Shown here one piece after another: positions 3,112-10,171 of a stretch of 64,000 bases of DNA. The stretch is from Planctomycetota bacterium. Its GTDB lineage: Bacteria; Planctomycetota; B15-G4. The DNA is taken from NCBI GenBank assembly GCA_021604805.1, contig BQJR01000004.1, positions 513,794-577,793 of the forward strand. The letters run 5' to 3'. The notes beneath the pieces were generated by a model that was not told the origin of the DNA, ran no database searches, and saw nothing but the letters and a program-made list of their open reading frames with translations. Position 1 is the stretch's first letter. Each line of letters starts with the position of its first letter. Position numbers and translations under genes: made by a program.

Positions 3112-3179
3112 GGTCGATCTCCACGACTCAGGCATTCGGGGTTCGGGTGACGAAGCAAAGTCGCCCCCCAGGGGGAAAC

Positions 3180-3833
3180 TCAGCGTGTGTCCACGAGCTC
3201 TTCGTTGGGGCGGCCCGTGATGTCGGCCAAGCAGGCTTCGGCGGCGGCCGCGGCTTCCTTGATCTCGTCGTCGCCGCCACCGAGGTAGAGCCGACCGTAG
3301 GCGCCGAAGGTCACGACCTCGAGCAGCCGGATGGGCGAGGCCTTCTCGGCCTCGTTGGCGGCCAGGATGGCGTAGCCCGCGGGGTGCGTTTCCAGGATGT
3401 AGAGCGCCTGGCCCTTGAGCAGCTGGTCGCCGTGGCGGAAGCGATTGATCAGCATGGTCTGGTACGGGCTCGTGCCCGTGATGATCTCGCTCGTGACCAC
3501 GCGCGGTTGCAGGCGGTCTTCCATCTCGAGGCCGAGGTCGTCGAGGATCGCTTCGCCGGCGGCGCGCACGTCGCCCTGGTTGAAGGAGTGCACCTCGAGC
3601 ACACCGAAAGCGCGCTCCACGATCTGCATGCCGGGGGTCACGTCGGCCGCTTTGAGCGCCTTGTCCGTGAGCCGGTTGATGGCGATGCCGGGCTGCACCT
3701 CCACGAACAGCGAGGCCTGTTCTTCGATGGGCAGGTAGCCCTGCGAGACCGTGGCGAGGAACGACGCCAGCTGCGGTTGCAGCACGTCGAGATACACGTA
3801 GGTCCGCAGCGAGATCTTGCGGGCGTCAGCCAC
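3180..3833 (-). CDS. Tandem BMC-domain shell protein, BMC-T double-stacking class (CcmP / CsoS1D / Haliangium BMC-T2-like)
   Basis: There are two BMC-like domains: 'LFVEVQPGIAINRLTDKALKAADV...GVLEVHSFNQGDVRAAGEAI' and 'LYILETHPAGYAILAANEAEKAS...GRLYLGGGDDEIKEAAAAAE'. Each is preceded by a ~35-aa pre-domain. The N-terminus 'LRTYVYLDVLQPQLASFLATVSQGYLP' closely resembles the CcmP and Haliangium BMC-T2/T3 N-termini as I remember them. The start is GTG with GGAGG 7 nt upstream. Confidence 0.85.
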   Translation of the reverse strand: MADARKISLRTYVYLDVLQPQLASFLATVSQGYLPIEEQASLFVEVQPGIAINRLTDKALKAADVTPGMQIVERAFGVLEVHSFNQGDVRAAGEAILDDLGLEMEDRLQPRVVTSEIITGTSPYQTMLINRFRHGDQLLKGQALYILETHPAGYAILAANEAEKASPIRLLEVVTFGAYGRLYLGGGDDEIKEAAAAAEACLADITGRPNEELVDTR

Positions 3834-3849
3834 CTTGGTGCCTCCTCTA

Positions 3850-3963: not shown

Positions 3964-4932
3964 ATGTCGCGTCCCATGGGATCTCCACTCAGAAACACCC
4001 TCGCCCCGCTGCTCGCCGGCCTGCTGCTCACGGCCTGCGGCGGCTACGAAGCGAGCGAAACCGAGGCCTCCGCGCTGCCGCCCGGGAGCCTCGCCGGCAC
4101 GATCGAGCTGGGTCTCGACGCCGAACCCAGCGAGTTCGCCTCGCTGTTCGTGATGGCGCGCCGCGACCCGTCCAGCGCCCTGCCCGACCTGCTGCGCAAG
4201 TTCCCGGTGGATGCGCTGCCGCAGAGCTTCGTGCTCGACGCCCGGCATCTGCTGCGCGCGGGCAAGGTGAGCGGCACGTGGCACCTGAGCGCGCGGCTGG
4301 ATGCCGACGGCGAGTTGCTGCCCAGTCGTGACGACGTGGAAGCGCACCTCGGCCCGGTCGACACGGACACGAGCGGGCACGTGCTGCGGCTCGACACGCT
4401 CGTCACGCGCACGGTCACTCCCGACGACGCCGGCCTGCCGTCGAACCATCCGGCGCTGGGCGGCCCCGCCGAGATCGCCGCCGCCCCCGACGCCAGCGCG
4501 CTCCCCGGCGGTCACCCGCCCGTGGGTGGCGCGCCCAGCGGACACGAGTCTGCGGCACCCGCCGTGCCGCGCGAAGCAGGCCCACGCTTCGTCGGCCACG
4601 TGGAGCTCGGCCAGGACTTCGCGGCCAAGAACGGCAGCGGCACGCTCTTCCTGATGCTCAAGAGTTCCACCGCCGCACGTGGCATGCCGCGCGCCGCGAT
4701 GCGCATCGACAACCCACGCTTCCCGCTCGAGTTCGACATCGGCCCCGAGCACGTGCCGCTGCAAGTGGAGAACAAGGCCGACTTGCTCGCCGGCACGCTC
4801 TACCTCAGCGCGCGTCTCGACGCCGACGGCAACGCGCTCAGCAAAGACTCGGGCGACCTGGAGAGCGACGTGCTCGAAGTGCAGGCCGACCAAGACCCGA
4901 TTCATCTCGCGCTCGACAGGAGCCTCCCGTGA
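3964..4932 (+). CDS. Lipoprotein with an internally duplicated ~110-aa domain (CcmI/CycH C-terminal-like)
   Basis: MSRPMGSPLRNTLAPLLAGLLLTACGG has a lipobox. Two copies of a module end in 'LSARLDADGELLPSRDD' and 'LSARLDADGNALSKDSGD'. They are separated by a Pro/Gly/His-rich linker. Upstream codons of the listed ORF (3817-3963) look non-coding. Confidence 0.7.
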   Translation: MSRPMGSPLRNTLAPLLAGLLLTACGGYEASETEASALPPGSLAGTIELGLDAEPSEFASLFVMARRDPSSALPDLLRKFPVDALPQSFVLDARHLLRAGKVSGTWHLSARLDADGELLPSRDDVEAHLGPVDTDTSGHVLRLDTLVTRTVTPDDAGLPSNHPALGGPAEIAAAPDASALPGGHPPVGGAPSGHESAAPAVPREAGPRFVGHVELGQDFAAKNGSGTLFLMLKSSTAARGMPRAAMRIDNPRFPLEFDIGPEHVPLQVENKADLLAGTLYLSARLDADGNALSKDSGDLESDVLEVQADQDPIHLALDRSLP

Positions 4933-6239
4933 ACATCGCCATGGCCCGCGCGCACCGCGAAGCCTTCCTCTCCGCCATGGGCAGCGGCGCCGCCGTGTTG
5001 CGCACCGGCCCGGAGCTGGTGCGCAGCCGCGACACGCACTTCAGCTTCCGCCCCGACTCCGACTTCTGGTACCTCACGGCCTACCCCGAACCCGACGCCG
5101 TGCTCGTGCTGATCCCCGGCCGCAGCGAAGGCCAGATGGTGCTCTTCGTGCGCCCCCGCGATCCCGAGATGGAGACTTGGCACGGGCGACGCGCCGGTGT
5201 CGAAGGCGCGCGCGAGATCTACGGCGCCGACGAAGCCTTTCCCATCGCCGAGCTCGACACGCGCTTGCCGCAGCTGCTGCGCGGTGTCGACGAGCTGTAC
5301 TACAAGACCGGCAACGACGCCGACTTCGATCGCAAGCTGCTCGGGCACGTGCGCGACATGAACTTCAAGACGCGCGACGGCGTCACCGGGCCCGCGGCCT
5401 TCGTCGACCCGGGTTTGTTGCTGCACGAGATGCGCCTGTTCAAGTCGGACGACGAGCTCGACTACATGCGCAAGGCCGCCGAGATCACCGCCGAAGCGCA
5501 CGCCGCCGCCATGCGCACGCTCGCGCCCGGCGTGCACGAGTACGAGATCGAGTCGGTGGTCAACGGCACCTTCCGTTCGCACGGCGGATCGGGCCCCGGC
5601 TACACGTCGATCTGCGCGGGCGGCGACAACGCGAACATCCTGCATTACACGGTGAACAACGAACCCGTGCCCGACGGCGCCTGCCTGTTGCTCGACGCCG
5701 GCTGCGAGTACTCCGGCTACACCGCCGACGTCACGCGCTGCTTCCCGGCGAGCGGCACGTTCAGTTCCGCGCAGCGCGAGCTCTACCAAGTGGTGCTCGA
5801 CGCGCAGCTCGCCGCCGTGGAACACGTGAAGCCCGGTGTGACCTTCGAGTCGGTGCACGAAACCTCCACGCGCAAGCTCACCGAGGGCCTGATCAGCCTC
5901 GGCCTCGTGCGCGGCAGCGTGGACGAAGTGCTCGAAGACCGCAGCTTCCAACGCTGGACGATCCACAAGACCAGCCACTGGCTCGGCCTCGACGTGCACG
6001 ACGTGGGCAGCTACTTCGTCGACGGCACAGGCGGCAAGACCTCGCGCAAACTCGAGCCCGGCATGGTGCTCACGGTGGAACCCGGCATCTACATCCCCGC
6101 CGACGCCGAGCTCGCCGCCGAAGGCATGCGTGGCACCGGCATCCGCATCGAAGACGACGTGCTCGTCACCGAGAGCGGCCACGAAAACCTCACGGCCGCC
6201 ATCCCGAAGAGCATCTCCGAAGTGGAGGCAGCCTGTTGA
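4929..6239 (+). CDS. pepP: Xaa-Pro aminopeptidase (M24B)
   Basis: Motifs seen: 'HFSFRPDSDFWYLT', 'DAGCEYSGYTADVTRCFP', 'SHWLGLDVHD', 'VEPGIY', 'GIRIEDDVLV'. These are the M24B metal-ligand blocks. The GTG start overlaps the upstream stop (GTGA). Confidence 0.9.
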   Translation: MNIAMARAHREAFLSAMGSGAAVLRTGPELVRSRDTHFSFRPDSDFWYLTAYPEPDAVLVLIPGRSEGQMVLFVRPRDPEMETWHGRRAGVEGAREIYGADEAFPIAELDTRLPQLLRGVDELYYKTGNDADFDRKLLGHVRDMNFKTRDGVTGPAAFVDPGLLLHEMRLFKSDDELDYMRKAAEITAEAHAAAMRTLAPGVHEYEIESVVNGTFRSHGGSGPGYTSICAGGDNANILHYTVNNEPVPDGACLLLDAGCEYSGYTADVTRCFPASGTFSSAQRELYQVVLDAQLAAVEHVKPGVTFESVHETSTRKLTEGLISLGLVRGSVDEVLEDRSFQRWTIHKTSHWLGLDVHDVGSYFVDGTGGKTSRKLEPGMVLTVEPGIYIPADAELAAEGMRGTGIRIEDDVLVTESGHENLTAAIPKSISEVEAAC

Positions 6240-7423
6240 ACGATCCCCTGCTGCGCTGGCGCGAGGAGTTCCCGATCCTCGCGAACACCAACTATTTGGT
6301 GAATCACTCGCTGGGCGCCATGCCGCGCAAGGTGCGCGAGCGGCTCGCCGAGTACGCCGAGATGTGGGCCACGCGCGGCATTCGTTCCTGGGCGGAGGGT
6401 TGGTGGAGCTCGCCCGTCGACACGGGGAACCTGGTGGGCAAGATCCTCGACGCGCCCGAGAACAGCGTCGTCATGCACCAGAACGTGTCGGTGATCCAAG
6501 GCCTCGTGGCCTCGTGCTTCGACTTCATGACGCCGCGCAACAAGATCGTCTACACGGACATGAACTTCCCCACCGTGATGTACGTGTGGGAAGCGCAGCG
6601 ACGGCGCGGCGCGAAAGTCGTGTCGGTGCCGAGCCGCGACGGTGTCGGTGTCGAAACCCAAGACCTGCTCGACGCCATCGACGAACGCACGCTGCTCGTG
6701 CCGATCAGTCACGTGCTCTTCCAGACCGGCTTCAAGCAAGACCTCGAAGCCGTGATCGCGAAGGCGCACTCCGTGGGCGCGCTCGTGATGGCCGACTGTT
6801 ACCAGAGCACCGGCACCGTGCCCTTCTCGGTGCGCGAACTGGGCGTGGACATGGCCTGCGGCGGCTCGGTGAAGTGGCTCTGCGGCGGCCCCGGCGCGGG
6901 TTACCTCTACGTGAACCCGGAGCTGCGCGACACGCTCGAGCCCGCGCTCACCGGTTGGATGGCGCACGCCGAACCCTTCGCCTTCGAGCCCGGTTCACAA
7001 CGCTACGCCGACGACGCCACGCGCATGCTGCACGGCTCCCCCGCCGTGCCCGCGCTCTACGCCGCGCAGTCCGGCTACGAGATCATCGCCGAGGTCGGCG
7101 TGAAAGCGATCCGCGAGAAGAGCGAGCGCCAGACCACGCGCTTCCTCGAAGGCGCGCTCGAACGCGGCTTCACGTCCAAGTCGCCCACCGATGTTTCCAA
7201 GCGCGGCGGCACGATCACGGTGCAAGTCGAACACGCGCCCGCGGTCGTGAAAGCCCTCGCCGCGCGCGACATCCTGATCGACTGCCGCCCCGACGTGGGC
7301 CTGCGCGTCTCCCCGCACTTCTACACCAGCGACGACGAACTCGACGCCTGCCTCGACGCGATCAAGGAGATCCGCGACGAAGCGTTGTGGAAGCCGTTCG
7401 CGGAGCAGGCGAGCGTTTACTGA
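6236..7423 (+). CDS. kynU: Kynureninase-family PLP-dependent hydrolase
   Basis: 'YLVNHSLGAMP', the 'W...W' N-terminal block, 'DCYQSTGTVPF...VDMACGGSVKWLCGGPGAGYLYV' (PLP-lysine block), and 'GSPAVPALYA'. Only the last ~395 codons of the 914-codon ORF look coding. The TTG at 6236 overlaps the pepP stop, so the start is uncertain. Confidence 0.7.
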   Translation: MNDPLLRWREEFPILANTNYLVNHSLGAMPRKVRERLAEYAEMWATRGIRSWAEGWWSSPVDTGNLVGKILDAPENSVVMHQNVSVIQGLVASCFDFMTPRNKIVYTDMNFPTVMYVWEAQRRRGAKVVSVPSRDGVGVETQDLLDAIDERTLLVPISHVLFQTGFKQDLEAVIAKAHSVGALVMADCYQSTGTVPFSVRELGVDMACGGSVKWLCGGPGAGYLYVNPELRDTLEPALTGWMAHAEPFAFEPGSQRYADDATRMLHGSPAVPALYAAQSGYEIIAEVGVKAIREKSERQTTRFLEGALERGFTSKSPTDVSKRGGTITVQVEHAPAVVKALAARDILIDCRPDVGLRVSPHFYTSDDELDACLDAIKEIRDEALWKPFAEQASVY

Positions 7424-7615
7424 GGCAACCGGGCAAGGGGCGGGACCACTCCTCGCGCCGCGATTGACAGGCCCGGTGACCGCGGTACCGTGGCCGCATC
7501 GTGTGGGGCGAGACGGTCGGTAAGTCTCCGACAGCAACGTCACGTTCGACGCGGTGAACGCGCCGGGCAGCGCAGGACGACTCGGCGTGCATCCTTCTCC
7601 GGAGCCACGAGTCGC

Positions 7616-10171
7616 ATGCAGATCCTTCGAACGTCCGCGCGCCACATCGCCCGTCACGCACTCGGCGGCGCCGCGCTCGCCGCATTGCTCGCCGCCCCGC
7701 TGCAAGCGAACGATTCCTTCCTGGTGACGACCCCCGGCTCGCCGGGCACTGCTGGCCTCGTCCCCGAACTGGCCGGCAGCGGACCAGGGACGCCGGGCTC
7801 CACCACCAACTCACTGCGTCTCAGCGAAGCCCTCCCCGTCAGCGCCGCCGTGGCCGTGGTGGGCTTCAGCCAACTGGCCGCGCCGTTCAAGGGCGGCGTG
7901 CTCGGCCCCACGCCCGATTTCCTCCTCGTCGGGTTCGCGACCGACGCCGAGGGCACGCTCGAGGTCCCGTTCAGCATCCCGGCCTCGCTGCCCTTGGCGA
8001 CCCAGATCCTGACCCAGTTCTGGATCGCGGACGCCGGCGCGAGTGCGGGCTTTGCGTCGAGCAACTCGGTGCTCCTTCGCGTGCGCTCGCACGCGAGCCT
8101 CGAAGCTCTGTATCCCAGAGCCAGCTATCTGGTCGGCAACTCCCCGCGCGCCGTCGCGAGCGCCGACCTGAACGCCGACGGGGTGCTCGACCTCGTCGTC
8201 GCGAACCACCAGAGCAACTCGGTGTCGAGCCTGCTCGGCAAGCCAGCCGGCGGGTTCGAGGCCGCCAAGCACTTCCAGGCCGGCGACAACCCGAGCGCCG
8301 TCGCGATCCACGACCTCGACAACGACGGCGTGCCCGACCTCGCCGTGACGAACGAGGGTTCGGGCCAGGTGTCGGTACTGCGTGGCCTCGGCTTCGGCAA
8401 CTTCATGCCGCCGCAGGGCTTCGCGGCGGGCGACAAGCCACGCGGCGTGGCCGTGGGCGACTTCGACGGCGACGGCTGGGCCGACCTCGCCGTGGTGAGC
8501 GAGACCTCGCGCGACGTGGCCGTGCTCCGCGCCGACGGGCTCGGCGACTACGAGCTCTTCGATCGTCATCAGGTCGGCCAGAAGCCCAACTCGATCGTGA
8601 CCGCCGACTTCGACGGCGACGGCGCGCTCGACCTCGTCACGGCGAACTTCGACTCCGACGACATCTCGGTGCTGCTCGGCCTCGGCGACGGCACCTTCGC
8701 CACGCCCGTGCACACCGGCGTGGGCAACGGCGCCTACTTCCTCGCCGCCGACGACCTCGACGACGACGGGAACATGGACCTCGCCATCGCCGTGCGCGCC
8801 GGCGACAGCGTGCGCGCCTTCTACGGTCAGGGCGACGGCAGCTTCAACTCGATCTTCAACTCGCTGGTCGGCGACCAGCCCCACTCCGTGACCATCGCCG
8901 ACCTCGACGGCGACGGCACCCCCGAGCTCGTCACCACGAACATCGCCGACGAAACGCTCACCATCCTGCAGGCTCAGAACGGACTCTACGAAGCTGTGCA
9001 CACCTTCCCGATCGGGCCGACGCCCATCGCCGCCGTGTCGGGCGACTTCGCGGGCGACGGCGAGCTCGACCTCGCCGTCGTGTCACTCAACGGTAACAAG
9101 GTGTCCGTGTTGACCGGCGACGGCGCGCTGAGCTTCGACGAACACCCCACGGTCTTCGCCGGCGAAGCCACGAGGCGCGTGGTGTCCGGCGACATCAACG
9201 GCGACGGCCACACCGACCTCGTGGCGTTGCTCGTCGACGGCCCCGACAGCCTCGCGACCCTGCTGGGCGACGGCCTCGGCGGCTTCGGTGCCGCCACCAC
9301 GGTCTTGGACGCGGGCTTGATCTCCGACATCTGGCTCGCCGACCTCGACGGCGACGCCGTGCTCGACATCTTGTTCCACGAGTCGGCCTCCGGCATCGTC
9401 GGTGTCGCGCTAGGTGCCGGCGACGGCAGCTTCGGTACTGTGCAGCAGTCCACGACGCCCCCCACCGCCACGCGCCTCACGCTCGGCGACGTGAACCTCG
9501 ACGGTCTGCCCGACCTCGCGTTCCCCGTGAGCTCCACGATCAACATGGTCGGGGTGATGCTGAACGCCGGCGACGGCAGCTTCGGCGCGGCGCAGACCTT
9601 CGTGTCGGGCTTCGGCCCCACCGACTTGGCCATCGCCGACATGAACGGCGATGGGCTGCCCGACCTCACTGTGGCGAACGCGAACGCCGGGCGCGTCGTG
9701 GTGTTGCCGGGGCTGGGCGACGGCAGCTTCAGCGCGGCGCTGCCCGGGATCCTCGCGGACGGCGCGCCGCACACCATCAACATCGCCGATCTCGACGTCG
9801 ACGGTGTGCCCGACGCGCTCGTCGGCGTGGGCAACACGCTGCGTGTGATGCGCGGCCTTGGCGGCGGCGTGCTCGACGCCCCGCAGACGCTCACCGACCT
9901 CGTCGGCGCGCACCTCCAGATCGTCGACGTGAACGCTGACGGGATCGTGGACCTCGTGAGCTTCCTCGCGATCCAGCGGGACGTGCTCGTCACCGCGGGC
10001 CTAGGTGGCTTCGAGTTCGCGACGCCACAGTCGTTCTCCGTGGGTCCCGATCTCTACCAGGGTGTCGTCGACGACTGGAACAGCGACGGCGCCCCGGACA
10101 TCGCCGTCGCACTGGGCGACATCCGGCGGATCGCCCTGCTGTTCAACCAAGCGGGAGCCGACAAGCCGTAG
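7616..10171 (+). CDS. Secreted FG-GAP/VCBS repeat protein
   Basis: The signal peptide is MQILRTSARHIARHALGGAALAALLAAPLQA. More than 10 repeats of the 'DLNADGVLDLVVAN / DFDGDGWADLAVV / DLDGDGTPELVTTN' type are present. Confidence 0.85.
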   Translation: MQILRTSARHIARHALGGAALAALLAAPLQANDSFLVTTPGSPGTAGLVPELAGSGPGTPGSTTNSLRLSEALPVSAAVAVVGFSQLAAPFKGGVLGPTPDFLLVGFATDAEGTLEVPFSIPASLPLATQILTQFWIADAGASAGFASSNSVLLRVRSHASLEALYPRASYLVGNSPRAVASADLNADGVLDLVVANHQSNSVSSLLGKPAGGFEAAKHFQAGDNPSAVAIHDLDNDGVPDLAVTNEGSGQVSVLRGLGFGNFMPPQGFAAGDKPRGVAVGDFDGDGWADLAVVSETSRDVAVLRADGLGDYELFDRHQVGQKPNSIVTADFDGDGALDLVTANFDSDDISVLLGLGDGTFATPVHTGVGNGAYFLAADDLDDDGNMDLAIAVRAGDSVRAFYGQGDGSFNSIFNSLVGDQPHSVTIADLDGDGTPELVTTNIADETLTILQAQNGLYEAVHTFPIGPTPIAAVSGDFAGDGELDLAVVSLNGNKVSVLTGDGALSFDEHPTVFAGEATRRVVSGDINGDGHTDLVALLVDGPDSLATLLGDGLGGFGAATTVLDAGLISDIWLADLDGDAVLDILFHESASGIVGVALGAGDGSFGTVQQSTTPPTATRLTLGDVNLDGLPDLAFPVSSTINMVGVMLNAGDGSFGAAQTFVSGFGPTDLAIADMNGDGLPDLTVANANAGRVVVLPGLGDGSFSAALPGILADGAPHTINIADLDVDGVPDALVGVGNTLRVMRGLGGGVLDAPQTLTDLVGAHLQIVDVNADGIVDLVSFLAIQRDVLVTAGLGGFEFATPQSFSVGPDLYQGVVDDWNSDGAPDIAVALGDIRRIALLFNQAGADKP

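Follow-up and report, generated by a model that had tools for sequence, protein, structure and literature searches.

A gene for a microcompartment (BMC) shell protein that stands by itself raises the question of whether it belongs to a compartment at all and, if so, to which one. The gene in question lies on the minus strand, at 3180..3833, of the stretch of DNA analysed here (the window, 64,000 nucleotides from a Planctomycetota MAG). The initial annotation took it to be either a satellite of a compartment encoded elsewhere or a BMC-T protein employed outside a canonical shell. It had found no other shell gene in the window, and this absence extends to the whole of the 589-kb contig, C4. A genome-wide scan for PF00936, PF03319 and signature enzymes, which it had proposed as a check, nevertheless locates a main locus on contig C1 and a satellite with BMC-P and aldolase genes on contig C3, and thereby bears out the first of the two readings. 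The window gene very probably encodes a shell tile of the BMC-Tdp class, orthologous to HO-T3 (Hoch_3341), with the other parts of the compartment encoded elsewhere in the genome.

The reading frame, taken from the list of open reading frames and its translation, is intact and encodes an HO-T3-like satellite shell protein of 217 amino acids. Its coordinates are exactly those first assigned, on a strand that had been left unstated. Translation starts with GTG at 3833 and ends with TGA at 3182-3180; the N-terminal string quoted at the outset corresponds to residues 9-35, LRTYVYLDVLQPQLASFLATVSQGYLP. A strong Shine-Dalgarno sequence, GAGGAGG, can be read off 7 nt upstream of the start codon (3841..3847, minus strand). 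A promoter scan around the gene yielded no promoters. Directly after the stop codon, a consensus scan marks a weak terminator-like hairpin (3163..3179, minus strand) that is not above chance, two such sites having been found against 1.5 expected in shuffles.

Profile searches, sequence, fold and gating residues all agree with the class first proposed and fully support the assignment of the protein to the CcmP/CsoS1D type of BMC-T proteins (BMC-Tdp), whose double stacking is expected here by analogy. PF00936 matches it in two stretches, at 31.4 bits (Pfam gathering cut-off, 24.5), and the best stretch covers residues 144-202 in the second domain. In phmmer searches of the PDB, the protein aligns over its full length and essentially without gaps to every solved BMC-Tdp. 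The score is 279 bits with HO-T3 (5v76), 245 with HO-5816 (HO-T2), 219/218 with CcmP, 207 with CsoS1D of H. neapolitanus, 185 with CsoS1D of Prochlorococcus and 157/152 with the RMM proteins. The N-termini of CcmP and HO-T2, which the initial annotation had cited for comparison, agree with these PDB alignments.

The AF2 model, a monomer built on a 35-sequence alignment, has a mean pLDDT of 92.6. Its top Foldseek match is again 5v76 (Haliangium ochraceum BMC-T HO-3341; TM 0.93/0.98, rmsd 1.0 Å). Most of the Tdp chains listed match it with TM values of 0.87-0.93 and three 5l39 chains with 0.83-0.85, as against only 0.33-0.36 for Tsp chains (EutL, PduB). In the model the order beta-alpha-beta-alpha-beta-beta-alpha occurs twice, in residues 8-100 and 111-203. 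The protein had been described as two BMC-like domains, each preceded by a pre-domain of about 35 amino acids. The two domains stand, but the pre-domains are not separate entities. Indeed, the recurrence of the same secondary-structure order, together with the Foldseek matches to Tdp chains, indicates that what was taken for pre-domains are beta-alpha elements translocated by the circular permutation of both BMC domains. According to DSSP of the model, the first of these (residues 8-100; 3534..3812, minus strand) is composed of E8-15, H20-29, E40-47, H51-62, E66-72, E77-83 and H86-100, and carries the gating hairpin. The second (residues 111-203; 3225..3503, minus strand) is defined by Pfam and the model together.

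In SeCcmP, Glu69 and Arg70 close or open the pore (PMC5853799). The window protein aligns to SeCcmP (5lsr) without gaps at an offset of +4, which places the equivalent pair at Glu73-Arg74, in the motif VERAFG; the two codons, GAG CGC, are at 3612..3617 (minus strand). This pair, for which the initial annotation had advised looking, is invariant in all 82 aligned Tdp sequences, and the BMC catalog describes the Tdp gating residues as universally conserved (PMC8217296). Altogether 29 columns are invariant across the 82 homologues, and the window protein keeps every invariant residue of the family. Taken with dN/dS values of 0.08 and 0.25 to the two nearest orthologues, these columns indicate that the gene is far beyond what chance would produce.

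If the protein behaves like its solved relatives, three chains would assemble into a trimer of pseudo-hexameric shape, and two such trimers would stack face to face, enclosing an inner chamber within the resulting barrel. A central pore about 14 Å wide in each trimer would be gated by the conserved pair Glu73/Arg74. Such double rings may take the places of hexamers at some facet positions of a metabolosome shell, where larger metabolites or cofactors could pass through them as through an air lock. We infer the trimer and the face-to-face double ring from the 64-67% identity to 5v76 and from the HO shell structures; expression, incorporation into a shell, stacking and gating of the window protein are likewise presumed from orthologues in that range of identity. 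Placing the tile gene apart from the main operon might allow its dose to be set independently and the permeability of the shell to be tuned. That a satellite position serves independent regulation is a proposal of the BMC catalog (PMC8217296).

The orthology with HO-T3 is documented by phylogeny. Eighty loci with relatives of the gene were fetched, and solitary genes were distinguished from in-locus genes by the presence of BMC-H, BMC-P or Ts genes within ±6 kb. In a maximum-likelihood tree of 82 Tdp sequences (IQ-TREE), the BMC-T(dp) phylogeny that the initial annotation had called for, the window protein groups with Hoch_3341, that is HO-T3. Their clade, with UFBoot 100 / SH-aLRT 98, contains 33 sequences: 32 solitary genes and Hoch_3341 itself. 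The solitary or in-locus state requires 4 changes on the tree, versus about 27 when the labels are shuffled. The solitary genes of this clade span several phyla, and all 31 of the 31 genomes that carry them also encode BMC-P, with between 2 and 7 copies each and three as the commonest number. In the tree file of the catalog Hoch_3341 is labelled '5V76 HO-T3 || bmcType=HO (sat)' (PMC8217296). By its placement with Hoch_3341, the window protein belongs with the HO-T3-like satellite Tdp proteins, a group that takes in the catalog HMM 'Tdp_swampGreen_ccmPlike-HoT3like' and basal relatives. Two positions vary between this clade and the rest of the tree. Residue 37 (codon 3723-3725) is Glu in 31 of the 33 satellite T3-clade members and Pro or Ala in other Tdp proteins; residue 120 (codon 3474-3476) is Gly in 32 of the 33 and Asn or His in the others.

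The genome encodes a second Tdp protein in its main locus, of 209 amino acids and 60% identical to the window protein. In the tree, this paralog clusters with in-locus planctomycete genes and not with HO-T2. Its phmmer scores are 260 bits to HO-T2 and 237 to HO-T3, whereas those of the window protein are reversed (279 to HO-T3, 245 to HO-T2). Both types of gene also occur together within single MAGs: CAZYQW01 has a solitary gene (L017) and a main locus with the gene order of the window genome (L031), and JACQVV01 carries the two types at L018 and L037. Among 40 relatives examined, the family of the window genome (16 genomes, 13 genera) has an orthologue of the window gene in every genome, at 75-88% identity. 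The paralog is present in 14 of these 16, always on another contig or, in one case (G045), 3.9 Mb off on the same contig. The presence throughout the family, the distal placement and the dN/dS values mark the window gene as a stably maintained, selected and always-distal component of the shell gene set.

The genome from which the window is taken (4.47 Mb in 11 contigs, 89% complete) contains one BMC-H, one Ts, two Tdp, five BMC-P, one AldDH and one class II aldolase gene. The main locus lies outside the window, on the minus strand of C1 at G000:C1:892654-901170 (L011 8652-17171), with the genes from AldDH to DUF711 at about 892.6-899.3 kb. Its genes are ordered GDH-like, AldDH, BMC-H, Tdp, two BMC-P, Ts, a Cys-rich protein, an ACT/PDU_like protein and DUF711; the GDH-like gene, upstream of AldDH, belongs to the Glu/Leu/Phe/Val-dehydrogenases. 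The AldDH identifies the compartment as a metabolosome. Its Aldedh domain begins at about residue 22 and is followed by a low-complexity C-terminal extension of about 140 amino acids, and the N-terminal encapsulation peptide that is a mark of the HO type is not found on it. The second satellite, on the plus strand at G000:C3:313563-315498 (L012 7564-9502), consists of three tandem BMC-P genes and then the class II aldolase (PF00596). Together with the two BMC-P of C1, these bring the total to five, above the 'triplet' of the HO and FRAG types. No PduL-type PTAC is found in the genome.

The combination of a main locus elsewhere and orthology to a known satellite, HO-T3, is the one that the initial annotation itself had said would reduce the finding to an ordinary satellite locus, and this is what the locus is. 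The novelty implied for a solitary gene accordingly falls away. The window gene is a further example of a structurally solved class with a catalogued satellite placement, and matters little as a discovery. Its value is that of a marker: a lone Tdp gene of the T3 clade is a reliable sign that the same genome encodes a fragmented metabolosome at other loci, as in all 31 genomes of the cross-phylum set, and within the window family the orthologue is kept in 16 of 16.

The likeness of the window protein to HO-T3 (PDB 5V76) is not limited to the bit score, TM values and shared clade mentioned above. The two are of the same length class, align over their full length without gaps, are 64% identical in the structural alignment and have the same gating Glu-Arg pair. 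HO-T3, too, is encoded alone, with a main locus elsewhere that comprises a second Tdp, a Ts, one BMC-H and an AldDH. According to the catalog, HO shells are made of one H, three P, two Tdp and one Ts, the CcmP-like Tdp being on a satellite (PMC8217296). The HO type is further expected to have a main-locus Tdp of the CsoS1D-like clade. The window genome has the same numbers of H, Tdp and Ts, but five BMC-P instead of three, and the Tdp of its main locus falls outside the HO-T2 clade. The hosts also differ, a myxobacterium in the case of HO and a Planctomycetota MAG here. Further, the main locus of the window genome has another gene order and additional GDH-like, ACT, DUF711 and Cys-rich genes, and its AldDH is extended at the C-terminus. 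The compartment served by the window gene has an HO-like shell set, but it is not encoded by a textbook HO locus.

Closer in host are the planctomycete types FRAG5 and FRAG8, which combine split loci with 'HoT3like' satellite Tdp proteins (PMC8217296, Supplementary Data 2). One satellite Tdp protein of a planctomycete has already been catalogued as 'ccmPlike-basalHoT3like' (PMC8217296). With these types the window genome shares the planctomycete host, the distribution of shell genes over multiple loci, a triplet of BMC-P genes, a Ts along with two Tdp that belong to the CcmP major clade, and an AldDH with a C-terminal extension. In contrast, FRAG5 has two BMC-H and keeps the SPU enzymes pfam01791/pfam02502 at its shell loci, whereas the window genome has one BMC-H and its DeoC elsewhere. 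The only DeoC-family aldolase (PF01791) of the genome is encoded on the minus strand at G000:C4:386177-386875, some 130 kb away from the window and not close to shell genes. A check for an extension resembling an encapsulation peptide turned up a lead of only about 45 amino acids on the N-terminal side of its domain, which does not convince.

The genes around the satellite have no relation to BMCs. Downstream and co-directional with it (minus strand) are genes for an LpoB-like lipoprotein of 201 amino acids (PF13036; 2530-3135), separated from the stop codon of the shell gene by 44 bp, and for a 459-aa protein without a Pfam hit (1137-2516); a GT2 glycosyltransferase gene lies at 37-1053. On the other side is the gene for a CycH-Ig-like lipoprotein (~3964-4932), and the divergent side also holds those for aminopeptidase P (PepP, 4929-6239) and a kynureninase-like enzyme (~6170-7423). 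The next gene, on the plus strand (7490-10171), encodes an FG-GAP/VCBS-repeat protein of 893 amino acids, with at least 10 repeats and a signal-peptide-like N-terminus, and is unrelated to the shell gene. Synteny in the family, examined at 19 loci, extends over the entire block. Clustering of the ORFs within 3.5 kb on either side of solitary T3-clade genes, at 33 loci, brought out no partner gene common across phyla; the neighbours show lineage-specific synteny only. In Myxococcota, the setting of the solitary HO-T3-like genes is consistent: upstream are genes for ScpB and for a pseudouridine synthase of the RluB type, and the genes that follow directly downstream encode TldD/PmbA metallopeptidases (L020, L023, L025, L026, L041, L051, L061, L080 and L090). 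The satellite is therefore found beside peptidase genes in both lineages, PepP in the window family and TldD/PmbA in Myxococcota, which is probably a coincidence.

These surroundings invite two other explanations of the gene. One is that the shell gene forms an operon with the LpoB-like and 459-aa genes, both taken as envelope lipoprotein genes, tying a gated pore protein to envelope biology. The three genes are indeed co-directional, with the 44-bp gap already mentioned, and about 12 of the 16 genomes of the family show the same arrangement. However, the adjacency is limited to this one family and, even there, the closest relative (L013, 88% identity), with its 459-aa homologue on another contig, lacks it, as do L104 and L105. 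The spacer between the shell gene and the LpoB-like gene varies from 44 to 1119 bp, and the hairpin after the shell gene, albeit at chance level, resembles a terminator. The divergent PepP/kynureninase side is kept at least as well (PepP in 16 of 16 family loci), as inherited gene order predicts, and no neighbour family is common across phyla, the Myxococcota flanks being ScpB/RluB and TldD/PmbA. We consider such an operon quite unlikely, and on the evidence of this synteny the lipoprotein adjacency is best seen as inherited gene order. The other explanation is that of a BMC-Tdp working outside any shell, perhaps as a gated barrel on its own or as a scaffold, to which the lack of any further shell or cargo gene on the 589-kb contig and the unrelated neighbours would lend themselves. 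It is contradicted by the full shell set elsewhere in the same genome, by the occurrence of BMC-P in each of the 31 genomes with solitary genes of the clade, and by the presence in this clade of HO-T3, a listed component of the HO shell (PMC8217296) with related HO shell structures in the PDB. This second possibility of the initial annotation, not borne out by BMC-P occurrence and HO-T3 orthology, is less likely still than the operon and can be regarded as highly improbable.

Two further readings concern the identity of the protein and not its surroundings. CcmP of the beta-carboxysome and CsoS1D of the alpha-carboxysome share with it the fold, the stacked-trimer family and the gating residues, and the best NCBIfam model is indeed 'beta-carboxysome protein CcmP' (NF053796, 266.2 bits), with 52% identity to SeCcmP. 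Nonetheless, 266.2 bits falls short of the 340 required by the equivalog cut-off for that model, cyanobacterial CcmP is in a different clade of the tree, and the main locus, with its AldDH, is that of a metabolosome. A search of the genome (89% complete) for the RuBisCO large subunit (PF00016) gave no match. The protein also differs from CsoS1D in that the N-terminal extension of the latter, about 75 amino acids, is missing, the alignment beginning at CsoS1D residue 76. The score under the equivalog cut-off and the lack of RuBisCO lead us to reject the proposal that the protein is a beta-carboxysome CcmP and the shell part of a CO2-fixing compartment, the chance of which is negligible. Nor is there much more to be said for a redundant duplicate of the main-locus Tdp that is drifting towards loss. 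The 60%-identical paralog makes the idea conceivable, but the gene evolves with dN/dS of 0.08-0.25, has lost none of the invariant family residues, is kept in all 16 genomes of the family and belongs to a clade found across several phyla; the likelihood of this reading is minimal. A satellite tile of the HO-T3 type thus remains the preferred reading of the window gene.

Of more interest is the main locus on C1, with DUF711, ACT and Cys-rich proteins as candidate cargo, and this is the sole part with some potential for novelty. Other Planctomycetota (L031, L038, L108) have the same core, AldDH through DUF711. In the searchable main text and supplements of the 2021 BMC catalog (PMC8217296), DUF711/pfam05167 and pfam13740 are absent, and a literature search for DUF711 together with a microcompartment gave no match. 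It is possible, though rather doubtful, that C1 represents a planctomycete metabolosome type without a description in the parts of the 2021 catalog that could be searched, and that its chemistry is linked to amino acids. The core of this putative type would tentatively be AldDH with its C-terminal tail, H, Tdp, P, P and Ts, then the Cys-rich repeat protein, the ACT protein and DUF711. The version present in the window family might, with the same reserve, be distinguished by the added Glu/Leu/Phe/Val-dehydrogenase gene and the lack of a PduL-type PTAC. Should the type be new, the HO-T3-like tile would become the gate, under its own regulation, of a compartment with new chemistry.

Two proteins of the C1 locus have a feature in common. 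The Cys-rich protein of 171 amino acids and the ACT protein (L011 10555-11070 and 10016-10558, respectively, minus strand) share an N-terminal segment of about 45 amino acids, M..R.ILT.ADV...TP.ARD.A...G.QI, with a weak match to the Pfam family PDU_like. The 171-aa protein also contains Cys-rich repeats of the pattern CTGACGGxCAGGC. These might serve as a site for a metal or a cluster, or as a module for targeting to the shell.
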